NCBI GenBank assembly: GCA_008632985.1
Contig: QPGO01000187.1
Location: forward strand, 1 to 64,000
DNA from: Psammoneis japonica
Taxonomy: Eukaryota
DNA: 64,000 bases
Direction of reading: 5' to 3'
Program-made: the position numbers and the translations under genes
Notes under the pieces: generated by a model
Database searches by the model: none
Told to the model about the DNA's origin: nothing
What the model saw: the letters and a program-made list of their open reading frames with translations, nothing else
Shown: piece after piece, positions 12,781 through 57,971 of the stretch
Position numbering within the stretch: position 1 is the stretch's first letter
Layout of the letters: every line of letters starts with the position of its first letter

Positions 12781-12893
12781 CCGTACGACGTACAGCACAA
12801 GTGCATAAACTTCTTGACGACAACTTGTCACGTGTCACGATGAGACGCAGAGAGAATCATCAAGTGTAGTGGAAGAGCTAATAAAAAGCAACA

Positions 12894-26686: not shown

Positions 26687-26718
<32 letters not shown>

Positions 26719-30573: not shown

Positions 30574-31665
30574 GACGACCCCGCAAAGTTGCGCGCCAAA
30601 TTCCTAGTGCGTTAAAATGAGCTAGGCGTTGCTCCAGAAGCAGTGGGAATTTTGCAACAATAAACAGTGTTAACGTCATCTAAAGAACGAGAGCTTTCTA
30701 AATGGTGTCTTTTTTATTTCTGTGCCCCTATCAGATCCGAATCGGCGTCGAGATATCCAGACGACCCCGCAGTTGCGCGCCAAAATCCTGGTGCGTTTTG
30801 CTTAAATGGGCGTGGCTTTAAAAGTACTTAGAATTATGGGACAATCAATGGCAGTAACATTATCTACAGAACAAGAGCTTTCTAATGGTGTCTTTTTTAT
30901 TTCTATACCCCTATCAGATCCGAATCAGCGTTGAGATATCCAGACGACCCCGCAGTTGTGCGCCAAAATCCTGGTGCGTTTTGCTTAAATAGGCGTGGCT
31001 TTAGAAGTACTTAGAATTATGGGACAATCAACGGCAGTAACATTATTTACAGAACGAGAGCTTTCTAATGGTGTCTTTTTTATTTCTATACCCCTGTCAG
31101 ATCCGAATCAGCGTTGAGATATCCAGACGACCCCGCAGTTGCTCGCCAAAATCCTGGTACGTTTTGCTGAAATAGGCGTGGCTTTAGAAGTACTTAGAAT
31201 TATGGGACAATCAATGGCAGTAACATTTTCTACAGAACAAGAGCTTTCTAATGGTGTCTTTTTTATTTCTATACCCCTATCAGATCCGAATCAGCGTTGA
31301 GATATCCAGACGACCCCGCAGTTGCGCGCCAAAATCCTGGTACGTTTTGCTTAAATAGGCGTGGCTTTAGAAGTACTTAGAATTATGGGACAATCAATGG
31401 CAGTAACATTATCTACAGAACGAGAGCTTTCTAATGGTGTCTTTTTTATTTCTATACCCCTATCAGATCCGAATCAGCGTTGAGATATCCAGACGACCCC
31501 GCAGTTGCTCGCCAAAATCCTGGTACGTTTTGCTGAAATAGGCGTGGCTTTAGAAGTACTTAGAATTATGGGACAATCAATGGCAGTAACATTTTCTACA
31601 GAACAAGAGCTTTCTAATGGTGTCTTTTTTATTTCTATACCCCAATCAGATCCGAATCGGCGTCG
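30574..31665. repeat. Tandem array of ~6 x 183 bp inside the Harbinger element
   Basis: GACGACCCCGCA recurs at 30574, 30760, 30943, 31126, 31309 and 31492. Units are nearly identical. Confidence 0.95.
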
Positions 31666-31758
31666 TTCAGGAAATAGAAGCGCTAAGAGTTTCGCAACAA
31701 TGTATGACATAAAGATAAAAGAAGCTACATTCTATGCTGAGTTTGTAATAACACAGAT

Positions 31759-35803: not shown

Positions 35804-38800
35804 ATGAGCGACCCAGATTCGAGAGACGTCGTCTTGTTTGCGCTGTCAAGGGCTCGGCTCATTAATTTTGTAGACGGCAAATCAACCATCGAGTGCCACG
35901 ACGGCGGGGATCATCCTTCAACAGCAGCTGTTGTTCTCGACGAATGCGTCGGCGGAGGGGTGGCCAACGTTGATGCCTTTGTACGTGGCTACAGCAGCGT
36001 TGAAGAAGGGGCCAACTATGTCGTTCTACCCGATCTCGATAGAAGGTCTGTATTCACCGAACTCCATCCTGACGGCTTGGCCGCGGCGAGAAAAATTCTC
36101 AAGGACGTTTTGGGGTGGAAATTCTATACAGCTCATCCCAGCTTTCTTACTACTGCCAACCAAGAGGATGTGCGCACCCTTAAAGATCATTCCTTTCCTT
36201 TTTTATTGTCGGATGTCAGCGTCCCACCATCAAATTCCTTCTCGCCCTACGTCAGAAACATTTATTTTGATGAGAGCACGGGCCTTGCAATCATGTGTGC
36301 CATTAGTTTAAGGGGAGATTCCTTTCACCTTCCGCTGGTGGACACTTTGCGGGGTCTCACACAATACATTGCAAAGGTGAACCGGGAAAATGGTTGTTAT
36401 TCTAATAATGGAAACGATGATGGCAGTGTGAATGGTGGTGACGGCAATCCTCCGGGATGCTGGATTCCCGTTATTGTTGTCTTTTCCACTGATCGAACTG
36501 GCTTTGCGGAATACTTTCAAGCCATTACATCCTCTGATAATCCGGACGATATACCCGCGCTAATGGTAGATGGCATGGGTACGATGAAGAATTGTATTCC
36601 ACCCCACCCGGGTCTTGAACAATAACACCTGGGTCGTCAGTGGCCGCTTTGTAGACACCACCATGTACCAACATTTGAAACTGACTCGATCCAACAATGG
36701 TGAAGATCGGCTAAGCTTGTCCGGTGTTGAGCTTGTTGAACGTTCACTGGAAAGTCTTCCGGAAGCATGGAAGGATGAAACGTATCGGCAGCATGTACAA
36801 GTTATAGGAGACATGGTCGATGAGGCTATTGCCAACGACAGTGTCATTGGTTACACCGGTGCCGTGCCGGAGGTTGGTACTGCTTGTCGGAATGGGGAAT
36901 GCCCTACGGGGAATCTCGTGACTGATGCATTTCGATGGAAGGCAGAGGCACATGTTGGCTTTATGAGATCAGACAAGCTTGGCTTGCATGCTGGTTGGGA
37001 GGCTGGACCGGTGACGACGCTTGATGTCTGGAAAGCCTACCCATCCGCCGACAATCTATGTCAAGGAGTCATGAGCGGCGTTTCTCTTTTCAAGTTAATG
37101 GAATACTCAACACGCGTTGCGGAATTCCAAGGCGACAAGGGAAGCCGATTGTTGCAGGTGTCGGGCATGCGGGTCATCTACAATGCAAACCTTCCAAACG
37201 GCGAATCGCGCCTCATGGACTTGGACATTTGGAATGAGACTCTTGGCGAATATGAACCCGTGCAGCGTTTGAGCCTGTACCGATTTGCTGCCCCCAGTCG
37301 AGATTGCACGATGAAAGACCCCTTCCCAGCGCTTACCGGTGGCGACTTTGTCATGGATGGGGAAATTCCCGGCAGCAGTGGTGACGAGTCTGTACTAAGC
37401 GTTGTCGTTGAGTTTTTGGCGACCAACCACAATGGTGGTACCGCTCCGTACGACACCAGCCTTCAGGGTCGCCTCGTGAACGACACTTTGTTTACTGCAG
37501 AGGACACTCTAAATCTTGTCGAGACACCAGATAGCTGCAATGCGACGTCATTTTTCGAGGACTCGATACAAAGCTGTAGTCTCTGCCCAACGACGAACAA
37601 TGTGGTGTGGGTTGGTTCCTCCGCTAAGTTTTATGGCGAAACAAAGTCCGCCCGTGTGGAAACAAAGACGGCAGCGTTGGTGAATGGCGTTACTTTCCCT
37701 GTCAATGTCGGTCCGAGGAGCCTTCCGTCGTTTTTGAATATAACACAGGCCACATTGGATGGAGAGGAACTCGGTAATGTCTTTGCTGTACAAGACACTC
37801 TACTGCTCCCAAGTCTGGCAAGACTTACCATCACCTACGAAGTGTCGGCCAAGGATCTTGAGCCTGGCACTGTCAAGGAGCGCGTCGCTTTTGGCATTTT
37901 TGACGGAGGCACGTTCGTAGGCTGCGAAGGAGCGGATGCTTCTTTTGACGTGGTCATGTATGTGGATCCTCAACCCGAGATGAACTACCTGGGAAACGCT
38001 CGATACGCGGGTTGGGCGCTGGCAGGTATTGTGCTCTTATCAGTGACCTTCTTGGTCACTTGGGTCAAACGCAATGACTACATTCCGGTCGTGCGAAAGA
38101 TGCAGCCTCACTTTCTGTATGCCCTTTGTGTTGGAATCGGAATCATTTCCTGCTCGTTGATTACTCTAAGTTTTGACGATCAAATCGTGCCAACGGACGT
38201 TTGCAGCGGCATGTGCATGGCAACAGCTTGGCTGTCGAGCTTGGGATTCACAATGTCGTCCGCAGCTCTCTTTTCCAAGCTCTTGCGAATCAACAAGTTG
38301 CTGAACGCGGGGAGTTACGTGCGGCGAACGGTCAAAGTGAAGCATGTGATTTTGCCGGGGTCAATCATGCTTTGCGTCAATATCGTTGTTCTCTTGCTGT
38401 GGACTACTATTGATCCACTGACGTGGCAACGTCGTTCTCTCGAAGGTGAAAGGTGGAACACATATGGGACATGTAGAAGCAGCGGTACTGCTGGGAAAGT
38501 GTTTTTCGGTCTGACCATTGCAGTCAACGCCGTAGCTTTCCTAGCTGCTGTCTGGCAGGCGTTCAAGGCTCGACACCTTCCCAGTGAATTCAGCGTAAGC
38601 AAGTATGTCGGCATTGCCGTCTTTAGCTGGTTGGAGCTCCTACTGGTCGGTGTACCGGTCCTCTTCTTGATCGATGATGACAACACCCTTGCCAGATACA
38701 TTCTTCGCGTGGCGGTGGTCTTTGTGGTTTGCGCCAGCATGCTTTGCTTAATTTTTGTCCCCATTATTTGGAGTGTTCGGAAGTACTTGGTCGAAGGCGA

Positions 38801-39305
38801 CAGTGACGACGCAGTGTCCCGTTCTTCTTTAAGCCGTTCCCCCTTTGCAAGCCATCACCGCATTTATATTTCCGGTTTGAGGGAGAGCGCTGCAGACGAA
38901 AGAAGTTGCACAGATTTTGCGGCGGATATAGACAAAGAGAAACCAAGTCGTCAGGACGCGGAAGGCACTAGCAGCAGCCATTATGTGCCGAGGGCCAGTT
39001 TTCCTATCAGCAGCAGCTCTGTCTCATCTCATTCCGACACACCGAACCCTTTTCCTGAAGCAGCATCTGAGGTGACTGCGGGCGAATCTAAAAGATCTGG
39101 CGATGAGATGAAGACGGATTCTCCTCCAACTTGCGCAGCTTCGTCTCCTCCTACAATAGCGGTGAACAATGTGGATATTGAGAGCAGCAGTGCAGCCAAT
39201 TCCGAAAGAATTATGTCTGAGGTCCATCTAGAGAGCAACGATGCAGACCATTCCGATGCAGTGTTGTCCGAGACAGATCTAGAGAGCAACAGTGCAAACG
39301 ATTGA
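35804..39305 (+). CDS. Class C (GABA-B-like, 7tm_3) GPCR with 5'-nucleotidase-like ectodomain; frameshift near 36580-36605
   Basis: CRNGECPTGNLVTDAFRW...YPSADNL...GVSLFKLMEYS...LLQVSGMRVIYN matches the 5'-nucleotidase C domain. Seven hydrophobic segments with VVRKMQPHFL, ALFSKLLRI, DPLTWQR, ARHLPSEFS and IFVP. Confidence 0.85.
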
Positions 39306-39794
39306 CAAGCGGTGGTTCCTTGTTTCTCTACCTGGTAGTTGGCTGTGACGAACGCTCGGCCGATTTTGTGCTACTGTCCGTTTGATCGAACGCTCGATGG
39401 AATGCATACGGATGGATTGAGGAGTGCAACGATTGGAAGAATGCATTTCAGAACCGCCCGTCGCCGTCATGGTCGTCGCTTTTGAAAAGGCGATGGATCT
39501 TTGACACATGTTAACAATGTAGTAGTTCTAAATGCTGCTTCCATTGGATTCTCGCTACCTATTGTCGAGGCGGGAACATTCATCACCTGATGACTTTGCT
39601 GCAGAGCTTGCGCATGGAGCTAAATGCATGGTGTGTGAAAGTAGGAGCACCAGATCGCAAGTCGGGTGTTGCACCGGGGCGCGACAGAAATCGACAGTGG
39701 GATGTGTTCATGTATTTTTTTATTATGAAGAAAGCACGACTAAAGCGAATGAAGGCATGTGATGCTACCATAACCATACTCTGTCCTTGAATGA

Positions 39795-41662
39795 TTACGT
39801 CTCTCCGCTCACTTTGTTCAAGAGTAGATTGAACACATTCATTCTTTGAAGTTGTTGAAGGTTTCCCGACTGAACAATGGTCATTCCAATGGAATAATCG
39901 CCCTCTTCAAAGCGAAACATACCAAGGTTGTGCATGCGACTGTCCTTGTTAAGAAGGGAAATCTTCTTTTGTTCCCCGACATGAAACTGAACCATGGTTC
40001 GTACGGGAACCCCTTTTGTAGTGCGAAGTATCACATTGTATGTACCGGACTCGAGCACACGAACCTTCAGATCCTGAGTGGCCCCAACCTCTTCGAAGAA
40101 TGTATAAAACCATGATACTCTGTTCCTACCCTTGAAGCGATGCATATAACACATCTCCAAGTATGGATGTTCAATCCCTGGAAGCCCAATTACTTGGACT
40201 GGGTTCGACCACGAGTGCGTGTCATGGCTTACATTGTGCAGCACAGAATAAAATCTGTTTTCCATTTGAAGAAACTTCTCAGGCAGGACCGTTTGAAGGT
40301 CGTTCTCTTGACCGGGATCACTCGAAAGGTCGTACAAACTCCATGCACCTACTTCGTTGACGACCACCCAGTGACCTGAAACGAGTGCGCATTCCGACTT
40401 CTCCAATCGAAGAGAATGCTCCTTAGTGAAGCGGTAGTACCAGCCATCTGGAGCTAAATGATTAGCAGGTATTGCAAGCTTTGCAACAAGGTACTCACGG
40501 TCTTGCGGCCAGCCGGGGTTGTCTTGAAAAAGCAAGCCCTGGAAACTTTGGCCGTCCAAGCGTGGCACACCAGTTTTGTTTTTGTAACGTTGGTAATGCC
40601 CGGCCAACTGGAGCAACGTCGGAAAAATGTCATACACAATGGTCATGTCTTGGACAACTTTGGCGTTGAGTCTTGCCGGACAATAAAAGGAGAGCCGGTT
40701 GCGAACAGCGTTCTCCCAACCGGTTGCCTTCTGAGCTCGCAAACCAGTCGGATTGCGTGCCGCCCATTCTATGTCATTCATTTCATACCGTTCGCCAGTT
40801 GGCTTGAAGTTCCATCTGAGTCCTGAGAAAGGAGCCTTGTTTTTGGAGTGGGGCCGTTGTCTCCAAAATAAATTACTATGGTATTTTTGGAGAGATGATA
40901 CCGCTCCAGTGCTTCAAGAATTCGCCCAACTTGGACATCCATTTGCTCAAGCATGCCAAGGAGCATAGCATATGATTCTCCGATTCCTTTTTCAATGTAC
41001 TTTTCTTGGAGTTCCTTTCGGCATAGCCACGGCTCATGTGGCTGTGCGTAAGGAATGTATAGAAAGAATGGTTCGTCCTTGTTGCGGTTTATGAAACGGA
41101 GAGCTTTGTCTGTGACGCGCTCAACCTGCCAGCCTGGCTCAATACCATGAGGTATACCGTTGTGAGTAAAAGGGGCGTTAAAGTGTTCGTATTTGCCCCG
41201 GTCGCGAAGTTCTTCACCTGCCAGATCCCATGTTTCGTTGAAGCCACGTCGATGGGGTAATTCAGCATCTGAGGTGCCCAGATTCCATTTGCCAACCATG
41301 CCAGTAACATATCCGGCATCTTGTAGGGCCTCTCCAAGCATGTACTCATTCAGATGTGGTGCATCTCTCCCGAAACCTACCCCAACTGTTCCCGTGCGCA
41401 GAAAGTGCCTTCCTGTCATCAGCTGGGACCGAGTCGGAGCGCATGCGGTTCCCGTGTAGAATCGGGTGAATTGCACCCCATCTTTCATTAGCTTGTCCAA
41501 GTTTGGTGTCTCCAGCGGCGGCTGGCGAAAGCCATAATCATCCATACCCTGATCATCTGTCATGATGAGGATGAAATTAGGCTTCGTCTCGTCTTGTGCG
41601 CTGGAAGAAGCGAGGGATACCAGGAGGAAAGCCAAAGTGTAGTGCGTGAACATATTCATCAT
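39795..41662 (-). CDS. Secreted formylglycine-dependent (S1) arylsulfatase; one frameshift near 40825
   Basis: Signal peptide, PNFILIMTDDQG, CAPTRSQLMTGR, GKWNLG, PHEP, GDNG, KATGWEN..R and LYDLSSDPGQ. Confidence 0.9.
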
Positions 41663-42064
41663 TCTTTGGTTCCAAGGTCATACGATAGGAGTGCCTGATC
41701 TATTCCTGAATCTATTTGTAGACTTTTGGTTTGTATCACTTGATGATCTATCGTTTTCTTGATTTGTATCGTGTTTTGCCTTTCGTCTTGTTCCGGGAAG
41801 GGTTCGGTTTTTCGAAGTTGAAAGTGCGGTTGTGCTACAGTAGATTAGACTTTGTACAGTACTGTACATAGAGTCTCTAGGTGGTGGAAAATGTCCGAAA
41901 TCAATGAAGGTCAGCAATGGCTGTTGACAAAACATGACATTTATTGAATTATATTTATGAAAAGAATGACTTAAGGCTTTCCACGTTAAATGAAATTAAC
42001 ATTTAAGGCAGCAAGCCCCTCGTTTTTTTAGCTCGAATCTTCTTTTGCACCACTTCCTTACAGA

Positions 42065-43790
42065 CCTCCCAGTTGGGAGTGACCCAAACAGCTCGTGATC
42101 GTCAGCCAAAAAACTGTTTTGCCACTTGCAGCACAACAATCATGGTGACTTTAGATGACACAGGTGAGTGCAATGGAGATGGGGCCCTCCTGCTCTCTTG
42201 CCACATTTTCGACAACAAGCGCCGTGACTGTCATGCATGGCTGCACTGCATTTCTTTCTGCATCTCTGCCACATGCATTCGGACAATCAACCCAACAAGT
42301 GTAAGAAAGAAAAAATGCAAGACAAAAAGCAGAAGAGAAGTCAAGGTGCAAGGCCAAAAACAAAGGACAGAAGAGGCTTTTCGCGCACTTTCACCCAAGG
42401 CCAAGATCGATCTGGATTTTTTGGTCTCTGATGCCCGTGCAGATTTGACTGAGTTTGTTGCATGTGCCAAGTCTCATGGTGACAAGCTTCCCATGACAGA
42501 CTCAGATTCACCATGGGCAAAGTCTCAGGGTGGTGCTTCTCCACAACACCATCGAATGGCCTTTTTCAGGTGCTGACAGTGTGCAGCCAGGGCTTGGCTT
42601 CCTGTGGTGTGGTCTGCCCGTCATGTGCCACACTGCATTTTTGCTGTTGCATGCTGTCACATCTCATGGCATGCATCACAGTCTGGGGTGGCATGTCTGG
42701 GCAGCTGTTGTCCAAACAACCACATCTTGGAATTGCGCTGGAGCGGTTTTTCAATCAGCGCAAATGGGAAATTCTTCAGAAAAATTCAGCGAACAATGGA
42801 CAGACTCTGCTTTTTTCCATGAGTTGAAGCTGCAGTGACAAGAACCCAATGTGCAAATGGTGGAAGTTGTGGTGCCGACCAACAGAAACAAAGCTGTTGC
42901 TGAGAAACATGCACCAACAAGATGTGTGCAATGCACGCGCAACAACCTCTGTCGACCTGTCTTCTGTTTGTGCTCTGCTGCTGTGGCTTTGACACACTGG
43001 TTCTTGTGGAGGTCTGAGACAACAAGGAAAAGGGAAAACTTGGCTTCAGAAACAGCACAGCAGTCTCAGCATTGTGAGACTCAGATCCCTGCACAAACAG
43101 CCACACAAGATGGCCATCACATTTGGCAAGGGAACAAGCTCTGCTGTGGCATCTGTGGCGAAGTTGGCTCTCTCCACAAATGCGTGCCTTGGCAAATGGA
43201 GAAAGGAATGTGCGTGCGAACCCACCAGTGGAAGCAAATGTGGAACAGCTGCAACTGCAAGAAGAACACATGCCCCAAGCATCCTTGCCATTGAAGCACA
43301 TTCAAGATTGCTTGAGATCTTTGAGTGTGCTCCGCCTTGGGGCTCCTCGAGTCTTTTTCTTTCGAAGAAGTGTGCAGCTGTGTTTTTTTTTTGTGGTGCG
43401 GCCAATCACAAAACAGTTGCTGCACTTGCATGAAAACAGAAATCCTGTTGGTGGGGTCATGTTTTTGTTTGACATATGTTGTGAACTTTTACAACAGACT
43501 CTCTCGACTCTTTCTTTCCAATGACTTTTTTGCCAAAATGCTGGTGTGTCGCAGCTTGCAACTTTTGACTGCTCTCTTTCTTTCTGGGCTGCAGTCAACC
43601 ATTGCCACGGCAGTTTTCTGTCTTGATGACACAGCAAAGAGAAGGCCACCAGTGGTGCGTGCTGCTGCTCTTGCTGCAAGAGCAAGGCTGTCATGGTCAA
43701 ATGGCGTCAAATGCCGAACGAACTGTTGTTTCCGGGGGCTTTGAATGTCCTGACGCAGCAGGTCAGACGAGAAAGATCGCGATCTTTTCT
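42065..43790. repeat. TpA-depleted repeat; 42130-42860 has an inverted homologue at ~47020-47480 and ~49015-49185
   Basis: ALSPKAKIDLDFLVSDARADLTEFVACAKSHGDKLP (+) versus ALSPKAKTSVDFCISDACADLRKFVACTKSRGDKFP (-). Shared GGACAATCAACCCAA...TGCAAGACAAAA. Confidence 0.85.
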
Positions 43791-45184
43791 TTGCAAATCA
43801 AACTACCGGTATGAATAGTAGATTTTGGCGCACCATTGGCTGCTTGTGTCAAAGGACATGTGCATCCAGATCATGTCCAGATGAACATGATTCTTTATCG
43901 GTCGAGTCTCTGGAAGTGTGTGCTCATACCTGGTGGGTCAACGTGCCTCATAACTTGCCCTGCCAGTAGGTGTCTTTGTCAGTTTTGACATCTACCGTCC
44001 ACCATGCACCATGCACCCACATCGTACGCTCGGAAGACCAAAAACATCTCGCCAGGGCTTCATGAGCTGCCATTCCGGAGGTTCTTACAGACATATTCGA
44101 AGTGTAAAATTCGAGGCAAGTTGAAGTCAAGGAGGGAAGATCGCGAGAGCACCAGCATTAAAAGTTCGACGGAAAAGACATTGGCATACGCGTGTCGACG
44201 ACCCCTGGCAAGGTCCCTTGCTATGTTGATCGTGATAGAGTATACATTGAGCCGATGGCTTTGTCCTGATTTACTCAGAAGCCCACAACCAAAGGGCCTT
44301 ATTTGCCAGCATACGTCACAAGTGATGCTTTCATTGGCGTCATGATGTATGGTCGACGTCTCCGGTTAACAAAGATTCTGTCGATGTTGTTCAAGCAAGA
44401 AAAGCCCTTCGACTTCTGTTGATTATTGAGCCGTGCTGAGTCAAAGACAGATTATTATGCCGCCTCATTCAAGCACTGACGACAATGTGGGGTGAATACG
44501 CAATATCTAATCCAGGACAAAAATGATTTTGCGAGCAAGTGTCGGATATGTACGGTATGGTTCGTATACGGGTACTCAATGGAGTTTTCTCTCTACTACT
44601 ACAAGTAGCTGTCGTACCACATTTGTACTCCGTCGCTCGCAGCAATCGAACACAAGACGCAAAATGACGCGCCGAATGCAAGTTCTTTGATAACGAACGC
44701 TCGATTGCGCCACTAAACAGGATCCTATGGTCAGAGTAAGGTACGCATGTTTATCCAGAAAGACGAGACCGGAAATACCAAGACAAACATTGTTGTCACG
44801 AACGATTGAGTACTACACAACCGTTATCGAGTAAAGGAAAATCGCCTCAAGCACTCATTGAGACGATTTGTGTGATGGGAGCGCTACGTCGTCATTGGCA
44901 ATGCATCGTTTGCCCATGATTAATAGGACATTTAGCGTCAACTGTATCTCGTTCGCGGGTGGAAAACATTGGTACCACATTGAATAGTCCGATAATAATG
45001 TGCACTATTTTTTTTTCAACAACTAACAATCGCAAATCCACAGACCCTAACCGAGTGGGTCATACTCATCAATCTCCAACTTTTACGTTTCCTCATCTTC
45101 ATTACCGTTCTCGTCCTCCTCCTTGTTCTCGGTGACACCATAATCATTCATTTCTTCTGCTTGTTCCATAAGCTTCGATACAAA

Positions 45185-46153: not shown

Positions 46154-49100
46154 GGTCTTCACAATATCGATGCAAAGGAACAAAGCAGATTTTGTGACCA
46201 GTCGAGAAGTCGGCCAAGATGAAATTGTGAGCAAAGAATGAAGCGAACCAAATTGCGTTGCGTCTTTTAAAACAAGCAAGAAGATTATTTGAATTTTTGA
46301 AGTTGGTGGCATTTTTCGTGACAACGTAAGACAGCACTGTGGACAGAAGCTCATTTGAGTTTTATCCATAGATATAAATGCCGATAGATTCAATAATTCG
46401 ATAGCTCATCCATGCTATTGAGCAGTTAATGCATTCATTCCAGCAGAAATTTGTTCTACCACATTCGCTTGTTCATTTAAAATCCTAACGAATGGATAGT
46501 TTTGAACTACATTCCAAATTTCTAAGTAAAAATAAAATTTCTCATATGTCCTTCATGTGCATAGATGAAATAATTATTCTTTCAACGGTTCCCCAACGCA
46601 GTTCTTTTGCTTCTTCGATTGAAGTGGCCAAGACACTTTTCAATTTTCTCTCAAGGCCATGAAAAGACTTGAAGGGGTAGCATGAGGTGAAAAATGCCCG
46701 ATTTTTTTTTTTCTGCGCGCATTTTGGTGAAAATGATGGTGAAGAATTTGCCGTGCTCACTCGCAGCTCATGGAGCTCTGTGCGCAACGCACTGAGCTTG
46801 ACTGCGGGACGTTGGCTGCAAAGTTCTGCACACACTTGATGGGGTGCATGTGGACCTCACTTCTTGAAAATGGCGGCATCTTGCATTGGAGCACAGAGCC
46901 TGCATTGGCTGGTGCGGCCATTGTCCCGAGACATGTGGTTGTGCACCATGCACGCCAGCAACACACTGAGGATCGATGACCTTGGCAGCATGTCTGGGCA
47001 GCTGCTGCCCAAACAAATTTGGCCCATTTGTGCACTGGGTTTTTGTTGACACAGCTTCAACTTATAAAAAAACCGCACAGCCTGTCTGCTGTTCACCAAA
47101 ATTTTCCCATTCGCGCTGATTGAAAAACCACTCCACTCCAGTGCAAGCACGTGATTGTGTTCAGACAGAGCAGCTGCTCTCAAATGTGCCCCCAAGACTG
47201 TGACGCACACCATGACATGCAACATTGTGCATTGGCAAAAATGCAAACCACACAGAAGCCAAGCCCTGGCCGTGCAGCACCAGCTCCTCAAAAAGCCATT
47301 TGACAGTGTTGGGCGGAGACTTGGAAAAACATCCTAAGATTCTGCCAGTTGTGAGTCTGAGTTGCCACGGGAAACTTGTCGCCACGGGACTTGGTGCAAG
47401 CAACAAACTTGCGCAAGTCTGCGCAAGCATCAGAGATGCAAAAATCCACACTGGTCTTGGCCTTGGGTGAGAGTGCAAAAAAGCATTCTGCCCCCCCCCC
47501 CCCCCTTGTCTTCTGCCTCACAGTTGGACGCTTGGTTTGGTTTCACCCATTTGGATGGCCAGGGTGCCAAGGGGGAGTTGCCTTTCCCTTTTGGGGAACA
47601 CCCAGGAAATTGGGATGATTTTGTGGGAAGGAACTCCTGAAAGAGGTCAGGGGAGGGGGAACAAAAAATGAGTGGATTGCGGGAATTTAGGATTGTTTTG
47701 ATTTAGGCTCATGTGCTTTTAATCTTGTGTGGTCGAATCCAGATCAGCTCCAGCACATCATGCGGCACTCTGGATTTGGAGCTCATTGTTGCCATTGCAT
47801 CATGTGGATGAATCTGCTTCTTTCACTGCTGCTGTTGATGCCGCTGCTGTTCTCCATCTCCAAAAGCTCCACATTGACAGAGGCCCATTGCGCGGTTTGT
47901 CAGATCATCTCGACCAAGCACTCATTGATCATCCATGGCACCAAGGTTGCTGGTTCACAAAAATGGCATGAGGAGTGTGACTTGAACCAGAGCCAAGCAC
48001 ATGACAAAGGCGCTTTGCTTGCAGTGCCATGATCTGGCAAAATTTTGGGTGGAAGGAGAGAGCGGATGAGTGAGAGCAACGCCTTTGAAGAAAAGATTAA
48101 AACAATCACACTCACCTGCACGGGACCAATCTTAGCTGCATCATGAAAAAACAGTGTGCCACAGTGCTTGGCTCCATGTGGACAGGAAGCTTGGACATCG
48201 CTTGGCATGGTTCTGGGAGATCTTGGCACCGCAGGTCTTGACGTGCATCCTCTTGATCTTTCAGAGGTGGGCAACAGCTTTCATCATGTTGAGCCCTGTG
48301 CATGACTGCTTGCACCAGCCACACATCCAGCTGTGTCCTCAGATGTGAGCTTGTCATCCCAGACACTTGTGATTTCTGGGAGCTCCTTTTTCTCTGTGAC
48401 AGCAGCGACATCGCTGTCGACACTGATGCAGGCATCATCCTGCTGCTCTTCATCACTCATGTGCCAACATGCATTTTATGAGAGAAAGTGAAACCCTGCA
48501 ATGTGAGTGGCAAAGATGATGGTGTGCGAAACTGAACAAAAAAGATGTGGGTGAGCATGCGAAGCAGAAGCATGATTGAAAAGACACCAGACGCACATCT
48601 CAACAAAAAACATGCCTGCACCGGACACGCAGCATCAAAAAGAAAGGTGTGGCATCAATGTGACAATGAACATGTTCTGAACCAACATGGTGCAGCAACA
48701 AAAAAGGCACTGCAGCTGCAGAGAAGCCAGCACAGCTGTCAATGTGTTGAGTGAACGGTGCTCCAAACTGCTGAGTGCAATGCCCTGGAATCTGCAGGTG
48801 ATGCACCATGATGTCAGTTCACAGAGGGGAAGCATGGGGAATTGCCAATGTGCAATTTTTTGTTCATGTGTTGAACATGTGTGCAATGAAGCATGATTCA
48901 TGGTGATTCCCTGAGAACTCACACTTCCTGCAGAAAACAGGGGAAAAATGTGGCAACCCCGGGGAGTTTTTGGGAATCCCACGGCAAAACCAAACTGAGT
49001 CTTGACAACTTTTTTCTGCTGTTTTGTCTTGCATCTTTTTTTCTTGCATTTGGGTTGATTGTCCAAACACACCTGGCAGAGACAGAGAAAGAAACACAGT

Positions 49101-49479
49101 GCAGCCATGCACGACAATCATTGCTCATCTTGCATGACATGGACGCACGCAGACACCATGGAAGAGTGACTTTTGGCAATGATTTTCAAAATCTCTTTGG
49201 CCCCAGTCTGTTCAAAGTTTTGCATTGTGCGTGGGTTTTGTCCATGGGGCTGAGCACCCTGCTTCATTGGTGTCTGAACTAAATGTCGGTGGGTCGAAAT
49301 GTGTCAAGCCAAGTCATTCTTCTGAAGTTGCTGACAAAGAGGAAAGTCAACATTTTCCATTCAAACAACATAAAAAAATGTGTGATTAAACATGAAAACA
49401 GCAACGGAATGACAATTGCACTTGAGTTGAATGGAGAAAATGCCGGGACAAAAAATTTTGTCCCGCGGGTGTGGAGAAA

Positions 49480-49810
49480 GTTAACAAGGACAGTTGCGCA
49501 CATGACCTTGGTGTTTGTTTTGCTTTGAAGAGGGCAGTCATTCCATTGGAGTGACCATTGTTGAGTCAGGAAACCTTCAACAACTTCAAAGAATGAGTGT
49601 GCTCAACATGCTCTTGAACCAAGTGAGTGGAGAGACACAATCATTCAAGGACAGAGAACGGTTGTGGTTGCATCACATGCCTTCATCCACTTTGTTCATG
49701 CTTTCTTCACAATGAAAAAATTCACATGAACACACTCCACTGTCAATTTCCACAATGCCCCGGTGCAACACCTGACTTGCGATCTGGTGCTCCTGCTTTC
49801 GCACACCGTG
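49480..49810 (+). pseudogene. Inverted, mutated copy of the sulfatase 3' end and downstream sequence (39625-39955)
   Basis: FEEGSHSIGVTIVESGNLQQLQRMSVLNMLLNQVSGET versus the gene's FEEGDYSIGMTIVQSGNLQQLQRMNVFNLLLNKVSGET. The downstream non-coding sequence also aligns. Confidence 0.9.
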
Positions 49811-50199
49811 CCCCACTTGCTTTTCCTCAAGGAGGAGCTGGAGCAACTTTTGCACTTGTGGTTGTCATGATGGAGATTTGGTTTGCAAATCTTGTGACGC
49901 ACCACATTGATGGTGGCAACAGATCAATGTCTGGCCAGTGTGACTGTGCTGGCACTTTGATCAATGTCAACCAACACCTGGAGATCCTGCCCCCTTTCTG
50001 ACAACTGACACTTCTTCTCAAAAAATGCTGGCAGCTTTGAAAACAGTGTCAGCGACTCTTGTGTTTCTTTCCAACAAAACAGACAAAACCTTGGGCCATC
50101 ATTTGAGCAGGAAAAATGGCAAATCAATGGATGGGAATGTTGGCAAGACGTTGTGCCTGTTGCTCCTCCACATGCAATCTCAGATTGATGTCAACATGC

Positions 50200-51420
50200 T
50201 AGAGCAATGCCAACTGTTGGCAAGCACATTTGTTCCACCTCATGCATGTTCAATTTCATCACTGGCCATTCTTCACACAAGACAAAAGAGAATGGATTAA
50301 AGCTCAAAATTCTGCCATGCTTCTGACCACATTGCAACACACAGCCCTTTTTGCCAATTGATTGGTGTGTCACCAAAAACTGCCCCCAGCATCTGGCAGA
50401 AAATGTGGTCCATTGTCGGAGATGAACTGGTCAAAACAAGTGCACCATTGACTCCCCTGAAATCAAGAAACTCATGCAATGAGACAAGGGTTGAAACAGT
50501 TTGGCATGGAGGTGGCATTGGCATTGATGTCAGGTTTCACACTCAATTTCACATGGACTCAAACTGGTGCAAGCTGCTGCATTCATGCAGATCTCATCTT
50601 TTTCTCCCCTGTTTTCCTCCTTTTTTACAAAATGTGAGCTGAGCACAGATCATTTTCATTCAGGACAAATGAGGCGGTCAAGACACTGTCATTGTCTCAT
50701 CCACAGCTTCCCAAAACAATGCTGTGGCTGCCATGCTTTTCACCCCATGCTCCTTGTCATGACTGCAGTGCATGTGCAGTGTCTTGTTTCTTGATGCTTC
50801 TGCACTGATGCAGACTCTGATCATCTCTCATTTTTGGAAGCGCTGCAATGCAAACACTCCCAAACCAGCCTTCTTTTGACAGGAAAGCTCGACTTCAAAG
50901 TGGCCCCTCCAGAGATCTCGGGACTGAAGCAGCAGCAAAAAGTGGCAAGTCAACCTGAAGTCTGCCTCACTCCAGATCATCCTTGAAGCTGCACATTCCT
51001 TGCAGCTCAATGCGACAGTGCACCCTCTCATGAAGTCTGATGCATGAGGCCTCTTCATGCTGAAGGTGCGTGTGCCGTGGTGCCAACGACTGGTGGCTCC
51101 AGCTGCCTGGCTGAGGTCACCTGCAAACACTGCATTGATGCCTCTGTGTGCTTTTTTCAAGTTTGCTTTCAATGTTGCCAGATTGCTGTGCAGTTTTTTT
51201 AGTCTCTTTTGCACGTGAATGACACCTCATCAACAACCAACGGATGGCAGATGTTGCTCCAGCCACTTTGAACTTGTTTTTTTGCAGCTTCTTTTTTCTG
51301 GTGTGAATGTGCAACTGTGTGGACAGTGTCACCTTTGAGGATGGTGGCATCAACTCCAGTCATGGCAGTGACAGCAATGGTGCATGTCGTGAACGGTTGC
51401 CACAAACGAAAGAGAGCTGC
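50200..51420 (-). pseudogene. Degenerate Pif1-like helicase (Helitron-type remnant)
   Basis: IAVTAMTGVDATILKGDTVH (motif Ia/Ib), LVVDEVSF (Walker B) and GINAVFAGDLSQ (motif III) in the correct order. Confidence 0.7.
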
Positions 51421-51571
51421 ATTGTCTCTGCCACTCAAAAACACAAGATGGAAACTGCTGTGGATTGATTGCAGCATCACAACTGTTGTGTGACGGTCAA
51501 CGAGTGCCAATTTTGCGGGGAAATCCATGATGCGTGTTGTGCGCATTGAAATAAAGTGACAACGTCTTTCG

Positions 51572-54500
51572 GGCAATCGTCCAGCTGCGCAGGCAGCTCT
51601 TCATGAACTGTGTGGGAAATGTGCTGGAACTTGTGTAGAATCCCACAACGACACAATTCCATTTCTGTGACGACAAGCAGAAATGAACGGTCCAATGTGG
51701 TGCAAGTTGCACAACGACACGAAAGAGGGAATCCTCTTCATTTCCTTCATTCCACTCAAATGATCCCGATTTGGCATGTCGCACCGTAAGAAACGGCCAT
51801 GCACATTGCACTTTGATGTGTTTCGGCATGGCAAACATCATGGGGCAGACGTGTCTTGCATGTGTGATCTCTTTCTGTCCCTGTCACAAAGAGTTTGACG
51901 CACTGGTTTGGTTTCCTGGGGGGCTTTGGTTGCAACACACGGTGCAAACGGTTGCGTGCATCGACTGGTGCCTCGATTGCTGTGCGGTGCGGGTGACATC
52001 TGAATGGTCGACAACGCCGCTGAGGTAAGTTCTTTCTGTGATTTTTCATTTTATGTCGTTTTCCCATTCACTAAAGATCATTGTTGCGTTTTGTTGCAGC
52101 TTGAAAAGTGGATGCATCGTCTCGTACGGTCGATTGTGGCATCTGTTTTTATGGCATGTTTTTCAAGTCGTTGGCGCCGCCAGAGCGTGTGTGTCTAGGA
52201 GCTTTGTGCTCCATCTCACTCTGCATCCTTTGGCGCACCTGTTGTGCATGTTAAGACAGACTTGTGATGCTCTTGACATCCTTCTTTGGGTCTTGTTCGG
52301 CGCATGATGACGGCATGTCATTTTTTGGGCGTGTCAATTTCTCAAAAGTGTGTGCCGTGGAAACAAAACGATGCGATGGAGCCTCGGGGACACTTGTGAT
52401 GGTGGCATTTGTCACACAGACTTCACATGCTCCAAAGAAGATAATCACATGAGTGCATTGTGATTGATTGAGTTTTAGAGTCGTTTTGACGAAAGTCATG
52501 CACCTCATGGGCCCATTTTTTTTTGCATCTCGTCCATGCAAGGTGGCAGCATTGGCAGCGCAGTCTGTAGACTCGCCAGCACCATTTTTTATGTCTGATC
52601 TTGAAATGGTTGCTTTTGATGTAATTGTTGGCTCAGGTGGCATTGCTGTGGCAAGGCAGTTGGCATGGGAGTCGGTGGTGCTGGATCAGCTGGTTGGCGC
52701 AGGGCGTGTGTGGTGTTGGAGCAGCTGTGTGTGTGTGTGAAGGGGGGATCAATTCAAAAACTCGGGATCAATTGTAACACCAAAAAGAGGAGGAAAGGGG
52801 GAGAACAAAATGTGGTGATCACAGGGCTGCTGTGCATCTGTCGTCGTTGAGTTCTCCGCCACCAATTCAGGAAAATGGACCGCAGCTCAAAGGGTCATGG
52901 GGAACTCCAATCATGGAATGGACAAATTGAAAGGGTGAAAATGTAGAGCTCATTGCACTTCAAAATGTGACATTGGTTTTACTGCAAAGAAGGCGTGCAT
53001 TTGCACTCGGCTGATTTTTACACGGTGAAGTGCGGCAAAAGCGAGAAAAATGCTGTTTCACGTTCTCTCTGACTTGAGGGTCAGTTGACATGGTCGATGC
53101 CTCATCAGAGATGTGAGACTTCTGCTGTTGACATTGGTCACTGTTGACATCATAAAAGCCGCAACAACATTCCAAGAAATGCAAACGAGTGCATCGTACA
53201 AAAAATTTGAAAATTTTCAGTCGTCACTGTTCGTCTGGCCATCGCACGTGCGCTCTGAACCCACCACGCCCTCTCTCTCCCCTCTCCTTTTCCTCTTCCT
53301 TTTTTCATAAACTCGGAGCTACCTGTGTGACCGGACATGTGCCCTTTCGGGCAATCGTCCAGCTGCGCAGGCAGCTCTTCATAAACTGTGTGGGAAATGC
53401 ACCGGAACTTGTGTGGAATCCCACAACAACACAATTCCATTTCCATGGCGACAAGCAGAAATGAACGGTCCAATGTGGCACAAGTTGTGCAATGACACGA
53501 AAGAGGGAATCCTCTTCATTTCCTTCATTCCACTCAAATGATCCCGATTTGGCATGTCGCACCGTATGAAACGGCCATGCACATTGCACTTTGGTGTGTC
53601 TCGGCATGGCAAACATCGTGGGGCAGACGCATTTTGCATGTGTGATCTCTTTCTTTCCCTGTCATAAAGAGTTTGACACACTGGTTTGGTTTCCTGGGGG
53701 GCTTTGGTTGCGACACACGGTGCAAACGGTTGCGTGCATCGACTCGTGCCTTGATCACTGCGCGGCACGGGTGACATCTGAATGGTCGACAACGCCGCCG
53801 AGGTGGGTTCTTTCTGTGTTTTCTCATTTTATGTCGTTTTGTTGTTCACCAAAGATCATTGTTGCGTTTTGTCACAGCTTGAAAAGTGGATGCATCGTCT
53901 CGTACGGTTGATTGTGGCATCTGTTTTTATGGCATGTTTTTCAAGTCGTTGGCGCCGCCAGAGCGCATCCGTTTAGGAGCTTTGTGCTCCATCCCACCAT
54001 GCATCCTTTGGCGCACCTGTTGTGCATGTTAAGACAGACTTGTGACGCTCTTGACATCCTTCTTGGGGTCTTGGTCGGCGCATGATGACGGCATGTCATT
54101 TTTTGGGCGTGTCAATTTCTCAAAAGCATGTGCCGCGGAAACAAAACGACGCGATGGAGCCTCGGGGACACTTGTGATGGTGGCATTTGTCACACAGACT
54201 TCACATGCTCCAAAGAAGACAATCACATGAGTGCATTGTAATTGATTGAGTTTTAGAGTCGTTTTGATGAAAGTCGCACACCTCATGGGCCTTTTTTTTT
54301 GCGTCTCGTTCATGCAAGGTGGCAGCATTGGCAGCGCAGTCTGTAGACTTGCCAGCACCATTTTTTATGTCTGATCTTGAAATGGTTGCTTTTGATGTAA
54401 TTGTTGGCTCAGGTGGCATTGCTGTGGCAAGGCAGTTGGCATGGGAGTCGGTGGTGCCGGATCAGCTGGTTGGCGCAGGGCATGTGTGGTGTTGGAGCAG

Positions 54501-56901
54501 CTGTGTGTGTGTGAAGGGGGATCAATTCAAAAACTCGGGATCAATTGCAACACCAAAAAGAGGAGGAAAGGGGGAGAACAAAATGTGATGATCACAGGGC
54601 TGCTGTGCATCTGTCATCGCTGAGCTCTCCGTCACCAGCTCAGGAAAATGGGTTGCAGCTCAAAGGGTCATGGGAACTCCAATCATGGAACAGACAAATT
54701 GAAAGGACAAAAATGTAGAGCTCATTGTGCTTCAAAATGCAACCTTGGTTTTACTGCAAAGAAGGCGTGCATTTGCACTCGGCTGATTTTTACACGGTGA
54801 AGTGCGGCAAAAGCGAGAAAAATGCTGTTTCACGTTCTCTCTGACTTGAGGGTCAGTTGACATGGTTGATGCCTCATCAGACATGTGAGACTTCTGCCAT
54901 TGACATTGGTCACTGTTGACATCATAAAAGCCACAACAACATTCCAAGAAATGCAAACGAGTGCATCGCACAAAAAATTTGAAAATTTTCAGTCGTCACC
55001 ATGTGTCTGGCCATCGCCCGTGCGCTCTGAACCTGTTGTGCCCTCTCTCTCCCCTCTCCTTTTCCTCTTCCTTTTTTTCATAAACTCGGAGCTGCCTGCG
55101 TGACCGGACACATGCCCTTTCAGGCAATCGTCCAGCTGCGCAGGCAGCTCTTCATAAACTTTGCAGGAAGTGCACTGGAACTTGTGCAGAATCCTGTGAT
55201 GACACAATTCCATTTCTACAAAGACAAGCAGAAATGAACGGTCCAATGTGGCACAAGTTGTGTGACGACACGAAAGAGGGAATCCTCTTCATTTCCTTCA
55301 TTCCACTCAAATGATCCCGATTTGGCATGTCGCGCCATAAGAAATGGCCATGCACACTGCACTTTGATGTGTCTCAGCATGGCAAACATTGTGGGGTGGA
55401 CGCATTTTGCATGTGTGATCTCTTTCCATCCCTGTCACAAAGAGTTTGACACACTGGTTTGGTTTCCTGGGGGGCTTTGGTTGTGACACATGGTGCAAAC
55501 GGTTGCGTGCATTGACTCGTGCCTTGATTGCTGCATGGCACGGGCAACATCTGAGTGGCCGACAATGCCGCCGAGGTGGGTTCTTTCTGTGTTTTCTCAT
55601 TTTGTGTCGTTTTCCCATTCACTGAAGATCATTGTTGCATTTTGTTGCAGCTTGAAAAGTGGATGCATCATCTCGCATGGTTGATTGTGGCATCTGTTTT
55701 TATGGCATGTTTTTCAAGTCATTGGCACCGCCAGAGCGTGTCCGTTTAGGAGCTTTATGCTCCATCCCACTCTGCATCCTTTGGTGCACCTGTTGTGCAT
55801 GTTAAGACAGACTTGCGACGCTCTTGACATCCTTCTTTGGGTCTTGTTCGGCGCATGATGACGGCATGTCATTTTTTGGGCATGTCAATTTCTCAAAAGC
55901 ACATGCCGCGGAAACAAAACGATGCGATGGAGCCTCGGGGATGCTTGTGACGGTGGCATTTGTCACACAGACTTCACATGCTCCAAAGAAGATGATCACA
56001 TGAGTGCATTGTGATTGATTGAGTTTTAGAGTCGTTTTGACGAAAGTCGCACACCTCGCGGGCCTTTTTTTTTTGCGTCTTGTTCATGCAAGGTGGCAGC
56101 ATTGGCAGCGCAGTCTGTAGACTCACCAGCACCATTTTTTATTTCTGATCTTGAAATGGTTGCTTTTGATGTAATTGTTGGCTCAGGTGGCGTTGCTGTG
56201 GCGAGGCAGTTGGCATGGGAGTCGGTGGTGCTGGATCAGCTGGTTGGCGCAGGGCGTGTGTGGTGTTGGAGCAGCTGTGTGTGTGTGAAGGGGGGATCAA
56301 TTCAAAAACTCGGGATCAATTGCAACACCAAAAAGAGGAGGAAAGGGGGAGAACAAAATGTGATGGTCACAGGGCTGCTGTGCATCTGTCGTCGCTGAGT
56401 TCTCCTTCGCCAATTCAGGAAAATGGATTGTAGCTCAAAGGGTCATGGGGAATTCTGATCATGGAATAGACAAATTGAAAGGATAAAAATGCAGAGCTCA
56501 TTACACTTCAAAATGTAACATTGGTTTTACTGCAAAGAAGGCGTGCATTTGCACTCGGCTGATTTTTACACGGTGAAGTGCGGCAAAAGCGAGAAAAATG
56601 CTGTTTCACGTTCTCTCCGACTTGAGGGTCAGTTGACATGGTCGATACCTTATTAGAGATGTGAGACTTCTACTATTGACATCGGTCACTGTTGACATCA
56701 TAAAAGCCGCAACAACATTCCAAGAAATACAAACGAGTGCATTGTACGAAAAATTTGAAAATTTTCATTCGTCACTATTCGTCTGGCCATCGTACGTGCG
56801 CTCTGAACCTATGTATTACGCCCTCTCTCTCCCCTCTCCTTTTCCTCTTCCTTTTTTTCATCAACTCGGAGCTACAGTACCTACGTGACCGGACATATGC
56901 C
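51572..56901. mobile_element. Head-to-tail trimer of a ~1.77-kb non-autonomous TIR element (51572-53343, 53350-55116, 55123-56901)
   Basis: Three alignable units with imperfect TIRs (GGCA...TGCC). The 8-bp direct repeat GTCTTTCG flanks the array (51564-51571, 56902-56909). Six-bp spacers CTTTCG and CTTTCA lie between units. Confidence 0.85.
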
Positions 56902-56960
56902 GTCTTTCGTTCAACAATTGAAATTCAACGAAGAACAGCAACGTTATTACAAGCCCCACA

Positions 56961-57971
56961 ATGCTGCTACAACCGTCAACAAGTCCTGATTTGTGGGATA
57001 AAGTTGTGGTTGATTTGGAGGAACAAGGAGGAATGGCGGTAGTAAAGGTTCCAATGATGTTGGAAGAGGTGCACAGACGAGGCTTTGAAGCAGCACGTAA
57101 GGAGTTATTGCAGAGCCCTCCACTGCAGTTTCCACACTTTTGTATTCCTCCAGATGCAGACTCGGCTCATGTTACTGGATATCATGAACCCTCCACCAAT
57201 GGGAGTATGAGTCGGTACAATGCCTATCGAGAAGGGTTTGTCTTTTCAGATGGCAACCTTTTGGATCTTAGCGATGAGCAATTTCGAACGTCTATGGAAC
57301 TCTTGTTTCAGTCAATGCATGACTGTATTGCTCAGCAAACTCTAAGTGCCATTGAACGTAAACTGGAATTACCGGTTGGTTGGTTTCAAGAGGAAATGGG
57401 ACCGACACATGACCACAGCCAGTGGCATGTGAAGCAATTCGTAACCCCATCTAAGAAAAACGAGAGCGAGGAGACGCAAAGAAGAAATAATATTCAAGAC
57501 AAGGACGACTCGGAGGAATTCATATGGCTACCAATGCATACAGATCCCTCATTAATTTCCGTTGTTCTGCATGATGCGCCTGGAATACAAAAAGGAGGCA
57601 TGGGGTTGGAAATATATCAAGCTTCCTCCACACACAAGAACAAAAAGCGAGAATGGGTGGAGGTCCCCCATCACGGACACTGCGTTGCTACCATTTTAGT
57701 AGGAAGCGTCCTTTCCTACATGATGGGGAGTAATCAATTATTTTCATCGGCAAAGCATCGCGTCGTGTACTCTCCAGAGCACAACAATCGAATGGCTGCT
57801 ACTTTGTTTGTTCGACCGCGACCCACAGCCATGCTGCAAGTACCACCGTCACCTCTGCTTACCCATGTCGTATTGAAGAAGCCTACCGACTTTCATACAT
57901 GGTGTACACGTGTCGCTAGAAACTATCAAAAGAAGCAAAAGAAGACTAAAACGACCCCAGCAAAGGACTAA
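56961..57971 (+). CDS. 2-oxoglutarate/Fe(II) dioxygenase (IPNS/DIOX-like)
   Basis: HTDPSLIS (HxD), GLEI, SAKHRVV (distal His) and RMAATLF (2OG-binding Arg). Confidence 0.88.
   Translation: MLLQPSTSPDLWDKVVVDLEEQGGMAVVKVPMMLEEVHRRGFEAARKELLQSPPLQFPHFCIPPDADSAHVTGYHEPSTNGSMSRYNAYREGFVFSDGNLLDLSDEQFRTSMELLFQSMHDCIAQQTLSAIERKLELPVGWFQEEMGPTHDHSQWHVKQFVTPSKKNESEETQRRNNIQDKDDSEEFIWLPMHTDPSLISVVLHDAPGIQKGGMGLEIYQASSTHKNKKREWVEVPHHGHCVATILVGSVLSYMMGSNQLFSSAKHRVVYSPEHNNRMAATLFVRPRPTAMLQVPPSPLLTHVVLKKPTDFHTWCTRVARNYQKKQKKTKTTPAKD

Follow-up and report, generated by a model that had tools for sequence, protein, structure and literature searches.

Loss of TpA and CpG from a sulfatase gene fragment embedded in a depleted domain, and the case for a region-bound transition process acting in place

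A 64,000-nucleotide stretch of Psammoneis japonica DNA (contig QPGO01000187.1 of assembly GCA_008632985.1, positions 1 to 64,000, hereafter the window) contains the end of a sulfatase gene twice: once in the gene itself and once, 10 kb away, as a stray copy lying within a long domain poor in TpA and CpG. The differences between the two fall preferentially on TA and CG, with a strong bias in one direction. The best reading of the copy is, with high probability, a process of transitions at TpA (and CpG) that acts in situ and is bound to a region, and our analyses suggest that place, not repetition or homology, sets which DNA is hit. The pair constitutes a natural experiment on targeting, since the same host sequence occurs twice within 10 kb and TA and CG were lost only in the domain-embedded one. 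The features on which the argument turns are the following.

49481..49811, + strand: copy of the sulfatase 3' end, with about 51 last codons, the former stop read as CAA, and about 170 nt of 3' untranslated region (UTR); 1 TpA, 6 CpG
39626..39952, - strand: matching segment of the window's sulfatase gene, termed the parent in a preliminary description of this DNA, with 155 nt of coding sequence, the TAA stop at 39795-39797 and 3' UTR; 13 TpA, 14 CpG
46600..56400, no strand: domain holding the copy; 0-3 TA per 200 bp against 4-15 outside, rho(TpA) 0.04-0.22, rho(TpG)/rho(CpA) 1.4-2.0

The embedded copy and its gene counterpart

A BLASTN search with positions 49000-50500 against the window returned one strong match besides self, in which 49481-49811 (+) is a copy of 39952-39626 (-) at 84.99% identity over 333 columns (E = 1.4e-92). 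Gene and copy differ by 47 substitutions, comprising 40 transitions (from gene to copy, 13 A>G and 11 T>C among them) and 7 transversions, and the copy also carries two 2-bp insertions. At TA sites the changes from gene to copy are GTA>GTG (39920), TTAT>TCAT (39896), CTAC>ATGC (39828-39825), ACGTAA>ACACAA, which turns the stop TAA into CAA (39798/39797), TTATG>TTGTG (39771), CATAATAA>CACAATGA (39725/39721) and CTACT>CTGCT (39642). CG is replaced by TG or CA at 39938, 39867, 39807, 39692 and 39664 and at six further CG sites, and GAATG>GAGTG occurs at two places (39884 and 39838). The alignment contains every TA, CG and GAATG>GAGTG change that the preliminary description had listed for the copy. 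With a 2-bp insertion and the stop gone, the copy is non-functional, and a tblastn search of the sulfatase open reading frames (ORFs) against the window found no further sulfatase remnant near it.

Among the 12 aligned TA of the gene, nine read TG or CA in the copy, two were changed by transversion and one was retained; the 14 gene CG became TG or CA in 11 cases and AA in one, two being retained. Altered bases accordingly amount to 11/24 within gene-side TA and 13/28 within CG against 23/275 elsewhere, an enrichment with Fisher p = 7e-6 for TA and 1e-6 for CG. In the reverse direction, no site with TG or CA in the gene is read as TA in the copy, and this asymmetry of nine to none is significant (p = 0.004). 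The count of TpG plus CpA rises from 55 in the gene segment to 75 in the copy. At the TpA density of DNA outside the domains (39.5 per kb), 331 bp would be expected to hold 13 TA, and the probability of finding at most one is 3e-5.

Selection on the protein is not the cause of this contrast in TA, because the 169 nt of 3' UTR on the gene's side still contain 8 TA (rho 0.66). The preliminary description had proposed the UTR of the parent as a place to look for TA loss, and had allowed that purifying selection on the gene might contribute; the UTR sites turn out to be kept, and that contribution is accordingly not needed for the contrast.

The parent is indeed a sulfatase, as had been proposed.

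39795..41677, - strand: sulfatase gene, with a signal-peptide-like start in ORF 40781-41677 and the C-terminal part in ORF 39798-40913, the two frames overlapping

ORF 40781-41677 (-) matches the Pfam family Sulfatase (PF00884) well above the gathering cut-off of 25, at 157.2 bits (E = 7.6e-46), and ORF 39798-40913 (-), which ends with the TAA at 39795-39797, gives a weak SGSH_C match. Every contig covering the frame junction (two in sequencing run X1 and three in X2) has one extra A behind 40811, so that the frameshift of the window at 40811 is probably a 1-bp assembly or strain indel and the sulfatase probably a whole gene with one unbroken frame of about 620 codons. Seven database homologues, 39-48% identical to the query ORF, align to its very C-terminus, and the duplicated coding part is therefore genuine sulfatase sequence; those homologues whose records were checked are metagenome-derived. 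A search with residues 200-372 of the C-terminal ORF found no shorter related proteins.

Depleted domains, controls and a repeat cut by a domain border

The window holds five depleted domains (about 7000-13000, 22500-27000, 32000-35000, 42200-43800 and 46600-56400), the last being the largest, with rho(TpA) near 0.05 and rho(TpG) and rho(CpA) near 1.8, and containing the copy some 2.9 kb inside its edge. Within the domains rho(TpA) is 0.03-0.2 and rho(CpG) 0.02-0.9, with rho(TpG) and rho(CpA) at 1.4-2.0 and reaching 1.6-2.0 wherever rho(TpA) is below 0.15; gene regions have rho(TpA) of 0.4-0.7 and rho(CpG) of 0.7-1.2. The composition of the copy equals that of its surroundings over 10 kb. In a set of older domains (7300-12600, 22900-26900, 32000-35000, 42200-43800 and 46700-51500) we counted 75 TA in 18.7 kb, compared with 1487 in 37.6 kb outside, i.e. 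4.0 vs 39.5 per kb, a ten-fold loss. Depletion of CpG is more variable: rho(CpG) is 0.02-0.2 in 8001-12000 and 23001-27000 vs 0.6-0.9 in 32001-34000 and 51001-56000, with similar loss of TpA, a contrast that fits either TpA decay several-fold faster than that of CpG, or a CpG decay that is separate and sometimes absent.

The borders of the domains are abrupt at a resolution of 200 bp. The flanking genes, which encode the sulfatase, a trypsin-like protease and a 2-oxoglutarate (2OG)-Fe(II) oxygenase, have their starts 200-500 bp away, with the borders on the upstream side. The promoters at 41800-42000 and 46400-46600 carry 15 TA per 200 bp.

Independent contigs, assembled from exact 31-mers in a public run and with a depth of 40-72, can be compared with the window. 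The number of differences between contig and window is 0 in 42830-43311, 0 in 47855-48328, 1 in 48304-48866 and 0 in 49446-50500; the contig identical to the window extends from 49446 to beyond 50500, where rho(TpA) is 0.04-0.05. The domain sequence is thus not a base-calling artefact of the window alone. Depth from 49728 onward is about 1.2x single-copy, but that of the bin 49327-49727 is high, and diverged further copies of the fragment are possible; the high depth of this bin is largely that of a multi-copy repeat ending near 49480.

Repetition as such could be assessed with a tandem repeat lying outside the depleted domains.

30574..31665, + strand: control tandem repeat of six units of about 183 bp; normal TpA and CpG

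Its units are non-coding and 87-93% alike, each holding 10-16 TA and 7-12 CG, and the ratio of transitions to transversions among them is 25 to 17. Since this repeat retains TA and CG, repetition is not the trigger. A second repeat, by contrast, is cut by the border of the domain that holds the copy.

51566..56909, + strand: tandem triplicate with a unit of about 1780 bp and 92-93.6% identity; the border at about 56414 cuts the third copy, whose outer tail serves as an unmutated outgroup

The three tandem copies (51566-53343, 53344-55116 and 55117-56909) show 176 transitions and 18 transversions among their singleton differences. Before alignment column 1300, copy 3 holds 11 TA and copies 1 and 2 hold 15 and 13; past this column, which corresponds to about 56414 in the window and lies outside the domain for the third copy, copy 3 has 24 TA and copies 1 and 2 have 7 and 5. 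Of the 35 TA in copy 3, 11 are TA in both sisters and nine have an identical derivative in both; nine are split, one sister having TG and the other CA, and seven follow other patterns. Since a single transition leads from TA to either TG or CA, and two separate TG from CA, the nine split sites show that an ancestral TA was lost by each sister on its own, in situ, once the unit had been duplicated. The outer tail keeps its TA, the inner sisters lost theirs and the repeat outside the domains was spared, and place therefore decides.

With copy 3 as an outgroup to copies 1 and 2, A>G changes are found at 20/87 TpA (23%), compared with 8/581 after A (1.4%), 7/448 after G (1.6%) and 22/588 after C, the CpA figures in this set being inflated by TG/CA double differences. 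C>T changes affect 15/238 CpG (6.3%) vs 3/327 CpC and 4/350 CpT (about 1%). The preliminary description had read the AA>AG changes of the copy as a WA-type signature; ApA is hit no more than GpA, and the target is TpA. Given a TpA rate 10-15x background, a fragment that has diverged by about 8% elsewhere is expected to lose nearly all its TA, as the copy has. Across the tandem copies, 147/196 variable columns fall in steps at which all three read TA, CG, TG or CA, and at 22 sites they differ as TG vs CA with no TA or CG remaining; two other repeat pairs within domains show 3 and 14 such double differences (17 in total).

TA in the older domains differ in their flanking bases from those outside. 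YTAR (CTAA/TTAG, TTAA, CTAG) accounts for 45/75 of the surviving TA in the older domains vs 264/1487 outside (Fisher p = 4e-15), and RTAY for 3/75 vs 421/1487 (p = 2e-7). In the polarised sets, TA loss per lineage was 9/12 in RTAY, 40/67 with mixed flanks and 4/12 in YTAR. RTA (equally TAY) is a possible preferred three-base target on each strand; alternatively, new TA may arise mostly in YTAR, and the data fit both. Within the RTA motif the altered base was T>C in 30 cases and A>G in 18, a difference that is not significant.

Evidence against the in-place process and alternative origins of the pattern

A number of observations weigh against a process acting in place on the copy. The pair alone cannot be polarised, its UTR having no outgroup sequence (two sediment-metagenome runs gave four 151-base contigs each on this stretch, unusable as an outgroup). 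At four sites the copy has CG where the gene has CA or TG, and, taken by itself, the CG asymmetry of 11 vs 4 falls short of significance (p = 0.12). Gene and copy also differ as TG vs CA at three sites, and the 23/275 changes at sites outside TA and CG amount to a divergence of 8.4%. The sulfatase coding sequence has a depth of 6-15x single-copy in contigs of the public run, with several relatives of at least 80% identity, so that the gene of the window is not necessarily the direct source of the copy, and another paralogue may be. Variant letters at sites from 39951 to 41225 are common to 3-7 contigs, one contig of the second run matches as far as 39724, inside the UTR, and the bin 39302-39702 has twice the single-copy depth; some relatives of the sulfatase may thus share part of the UTR. 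Concerning the domains, a Pfam scan of 100 domain ORFs gave no hit at the curated cut-off (117 ORFs of at least 90 amino acids were listed, 16 being covered by other scans and the one at 31484-31759 being left out), and nothing foreign was recognised in the domain holding the copy, though decay may hide a foreign origin of its DNA. The record of the confirming run gives no platform. Finally, the decay of CpG may be separate from the process acting on TpA.

The protein level offers a partial outgroup. The copy differs from the gene at 9/41 aligned residues. At four of them the gene shares the residue found in most of the seven homologues (Asp 5/7, Phe 6/7, Leu 5/7 and Lys 7/7), and it is weakly favoured at a fifth (Asn 1/7). 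Two of the nine differences are uninformative, and at the remaining two it is the copy that has the homologue plurality (Val 3/7 and Glu 3/7), which adds to the points above. One of the GAATG>GAGTG sites corresponds to Met>Val, and the copy may hold the older state there. Comparison with outgroup sulfatases, advocated in the preliminary description, thus appears to place the change mostly, not wholly, on the side of the copy. The same description had called the parent untouched, which is too strong: the four sites with CG in the copy, the three double differences and the two residues at which homologues back the copy imply that some change took place on the side of the gene, or that the source was another paralogue.

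The strongest alternative assigns the copy a different template, either a second sulfatase paralogue or a further copy of the fragment, in which most of the changed bases were present beforehand; the differences would then be those between paralogues. The depth of the coding sequence, the shared variant letters, the contig reaching into the UTR and the homologues siding with the copy at two residues all speak in its favour, and such a source could explain part of the 8.4% divergence, the four sites with CG in the copy and the three double differences. What it leaves unexplained is a fragment with one TA instead of the 13 to be expected. No gene region of the window resembles what such a paralogue would have to be, namely a working gene holding 1 TA in 331 bp and reading CAA at its stop codon, and the composition of the copy is that of the 10 kb around it. 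In addition, the matches of the two paralogue contigs listed end at 39790 and 39797, i.e. at the stop codon, and the match of the copy runs 170 nt further. A different source explains some of the 23 changes at other sites and not the asymmetry of nine to none at TA, and we consider it improbable as an account of the pattern.

In methylated genomes no context-dependent mutation is more common than CpG>TpG/CpA, and a dead fragment might have decayed neutrally in this manner, with TA lost by chance or through a genome-wide bias that selection holds in check in genes. The lost stop and the insertion in the copy agree with this. Non-coding DNA outside the domains, however, retains its TA (the UTR of the gene, both promoters and the control tandem repeat), and neither the asymmetry of TA loss nor the near absence of TA from the copy is to be expected by chance. 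Neutral decay is thus a very unlikely explanation.

We regard as equally unlikely a hyper-edited retro-copy, in which a processive deaminase (ADAR- or APOBEC-like) would have acted on RNA or single-stranded DNA before insertion. A coding end joined to a 3' UTR could represent a partial retro-copy, and ADARs favour U before the edited A, as stated in the Discussion of a preprint (bioRxiv 10.64898/2026.01.13.699255). No strand coordination of A>G and T>C was found in the three tandem copies (permutation p = 0.57, 0.72 and 0.87); the two kinds of change are interleaved, which speaks against a processive deaminase on either substrate, and they are likewise mixed in the pair (13 and 11). Moreover, the tandem copies diverged in place, the border cuts a duplicated unit, and there is no poly(A) tract downstream of the copy.

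Modified bases cause systematic miscalls in nanopore assemblies, and intact but modified TA and CG miscalled as TG or CA, with a random choice at each site, would mimic the pattern. Such a sequencing artefact is hardly credible, because noisy reads would not yield contigs from exact 31-mers at a depth of 40-72 with 0-1 differences per 474-1055 bp, and because repeat copies within the domains also differ by indels and transversions.

Known systems, a possible mechanism and neighbouring features

Fungal repeat-induced point mutation (RIP) converts CpA to TpA (C:G>T:A) and thereby raises TpA; it needs a duplication and hits both partners. The pattern described here shares with RIP the degradation of non-genic or duplicated DNA by transition hypermutation, with a footprint in the dinucleotides. 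As the preliminary description had recognised, it is nonetheless unlike RIP. Its direction is the opposite: TpA is destroyed, with a ten-fold drop and no TG or CA site turned into TA in the pair. The gene partner (with its 13 TA) is spared, as are the six-unit repeat at 30574-31665 and the part of the third tandem copy that lies beyond the border, and domain DNA matching a single unique contig is hit as well. The further claim that targeting follows chromatin domain and not homology pairing is supported in its second half by the controls and the tandem tail, which favour place over homology; as to chromatin, what is seen are sharp sequence borders, and we infer that these are borders of chromatin state.

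The decay of methylated CpG is similar in that a self-complementary step seems to give way to TpG/CpA in silenced DNA while genes and promoters are spared, and the CpG part of the pattern fits it directly. It differs in that TpA decays faster (23% vs 6.3% per base), and cytosine methylation gives no account of TpA.

The closest parallel, and a point in favour of the present reading, is a direct measurement of such TpA hypermutation in mutation-accumulation lines of the chlorarachniophyte Bigelowiella natans (Mettrop et al., April 2026; bioRxiv 10.64898/2026.01.13.699255). Of the mutations recorded there in integrated viral DNA (two regions, of 186 kb and 25 kb), 230/231 were of the type A>G or T>C, all of these at TpA, at about 6e-7 per site per generation, some 1000x the rate elsewhere in the genome; the larger region is silent and present as a single copy, the effect was seen in some lines only, and the genome holds 124 clusters poor in TpA and rich in CpA+TpG. 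As the agent the authors suggest an adenine deaminase of the ADAT2 type, which would defend the genome against foreign DNA. Our searches of the literature on TpA loss with transposable elements, hypermutation and genome defence returned, apart from this preprint, fungal RIP, CpG decay and RNA editing only, so that a single earlier account of local TpA hypermutation is at hand, which reads it as antiviral defence and leaves the choice of target open.

The two cases share A:T>G:C changes at TpA yielding TpG/CpA on either strand, confined to discrete regions of the nuclear genome with the rest normal; both leave a footprint poor in TpA and rich in CpA+TpG, and DDE-endonuclease domains are among the affected coding sequences. 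In B. natans single-copy DNA is hit, as may be the case here, which would set both apart from repeat-induced mutation. Unlike the viral targets of B. natans, the target here is a host-gene fragment with an unmutated gene 10 kb away, in a domain without recognisable viral DNA. Depletion is near saturation (rho 0.03-0.1, compared with 0.45 in the nucleocytoplasmic large DNA virus region of B. natans), and CpG is lost together with TpA. The accessible text of the preprint deals with TpA hypermutation only and has no mention of CpG, host-gene fragments or borders; its silence on CpG weighs against assigning the CpG decay seen here to the same process. Borders resolved to about 200 bp that cut a duplicated unit, and the near disappearance of RTAY with an excess of YTAR, go beyond that account. 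The rate in B. natans was measured directly, whereas the process here is read from its sequence footprint.

Returning to the favoured reading of an in-situ, region-bound process, the course of events was probably as follows. A stray piece of the sulfatase gene, comprising the coding end and 3' UTR, would have landed within silenced, repeat-bearing DNA. There, TpA would be converted in place to TpG or CpA at about 10-15x the rate of other A:T transitions, and CpG to TpG or CpA at about 5x the background rate, in any DNA within the borders, be it repeated, single-copy, foreign or host-derived, the process ending within a few hundred bases of the starts of neighbouring genes. Over time the domain would be stripped of TA and CG while TG and CA doubled, and the copy would have taken the same course; we infer that the same process altered it after its insertion.

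As regards the chemistry, TpA is self-complementary, so that the sequence cannot tell which of its two bases, T or A, undergoes the alteration. A leading though tentative candidate is the deamination, in DNA, of the adenine of TpA, as put forward for B. natans. A mispairing modified base placed symmetrically on TpA (e.g. an oxidised thymine such as 5-hydroxymethyluracil, 5hmU, or 5-formyluracil, 5fU), together with 5-methylcytosine on CpG, seems somewhat less likely, and the rest of the probability falls to other enzymes or chemistries. In dinoflagellates, 5hmU is made by a TET/JBP enzyme and is enriched on repeat elements, and older work cited in the Discussion of the same paper gives it a preference for TA and TC dinucleotides (PMC11572971). 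It is thus a candidate chemistry for T>C at TpA, although the portion of that paper at hand reports no hypermutation (PMC11572971). Contrary to a TA/TC preference, no TpC effect is present here, A>G after G (equivalent to T>C before C) standing at 1.6%, and the gene layout of the window, with genes on both strands and long uninterrupted frames, is unlike that of a dinoflagellate.

It is conceivable, though we advance it with reserve, that the mutator is aimed by position in silenced chromatin and not by foreignness, repetition or homology, that it spreads over whatever DNA has landed there and stops at active promoters, and that the decay of CpG is coupled to it. TpA and CpG, the two pyrimidine-purine steps that are self-complementary, would then both carry heritable symmetric base modifications, and their decay would rewrite heterochromatin into DNA rich in TG and CA.

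If the reading is true, the process occurs in a second host besides B. natans and is more widespread than previously described. The locus contributes a host-derived target close to its unmutated counterpart, and borders that are resolved to about 200 bp and in one case run through a duplicated unit; further handles on the enzyme come from the joint decay of CpG and from the flank preference, with RTAY lost first and YTAR lasting. The borders at about 46600 and about 56400, together with the matched pair, allow chromatin marks, base modifications and de novo rates to be compared.

Two further features lie next to the main subjects.

42200..43800, no strand: second depleted domain, just upstream of the sulfatase; its repeats 42213-42341 and 42365-42860 are related to 49132-49008 and 47493-47024
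47322..49480, no strand: multi-copy genome repeat adjoining the copy; contig depth 4-15x single-copy

Three inverted matches are collinear (39626-39952, 42213-42341 and 42365-42860 vs 49811-49481, 49132-49008 and 47493-47024). They may be what is left of an inverted segmental duplication of larger extent, from which most of the gene was deleted and into which 1.5 kb was inserted, or may reflect the chance neighbourhood of a multi-copy repeat. An inverted duplication of the whole gene followed by decay is not borne out by the tblastn search, which showed no further remnant; in view of the collinear matches it may nonetheless have taken place.

At the other end of the domain holding the copy, the border at about 56414 lies some 500 bp upstream of the 2OG-Fe(II) oxygenase ORF (56922-57968), and the unit of the tandem triplicate seems to include a copy of the upstream region of this gene. 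At the edge of the domain 32000-35000, ORF 31762-32421 (-) matches DDE_Tnp_4 (Harbinger/PIF-type transposase; E = 8.8e-7) and is the sole recognisable mobile-element protein in any domain. Outside the domains, a single-copy contig of run X1 covering 38500-40254 differs from the window at 6/1755 bases, transversions included, and run and window assembly may therefore represent different haplotypes or strains. Next to the sulfatase, the 905-codon ORF 36588-39302 (+) combines a 5'-nucleotidase C-terminal domain (residues 98-235) with a family-C seven-transmembrane domain (7tm_3, residues 477-725), the former being an unusual ligand-binding head for this class of receptor.

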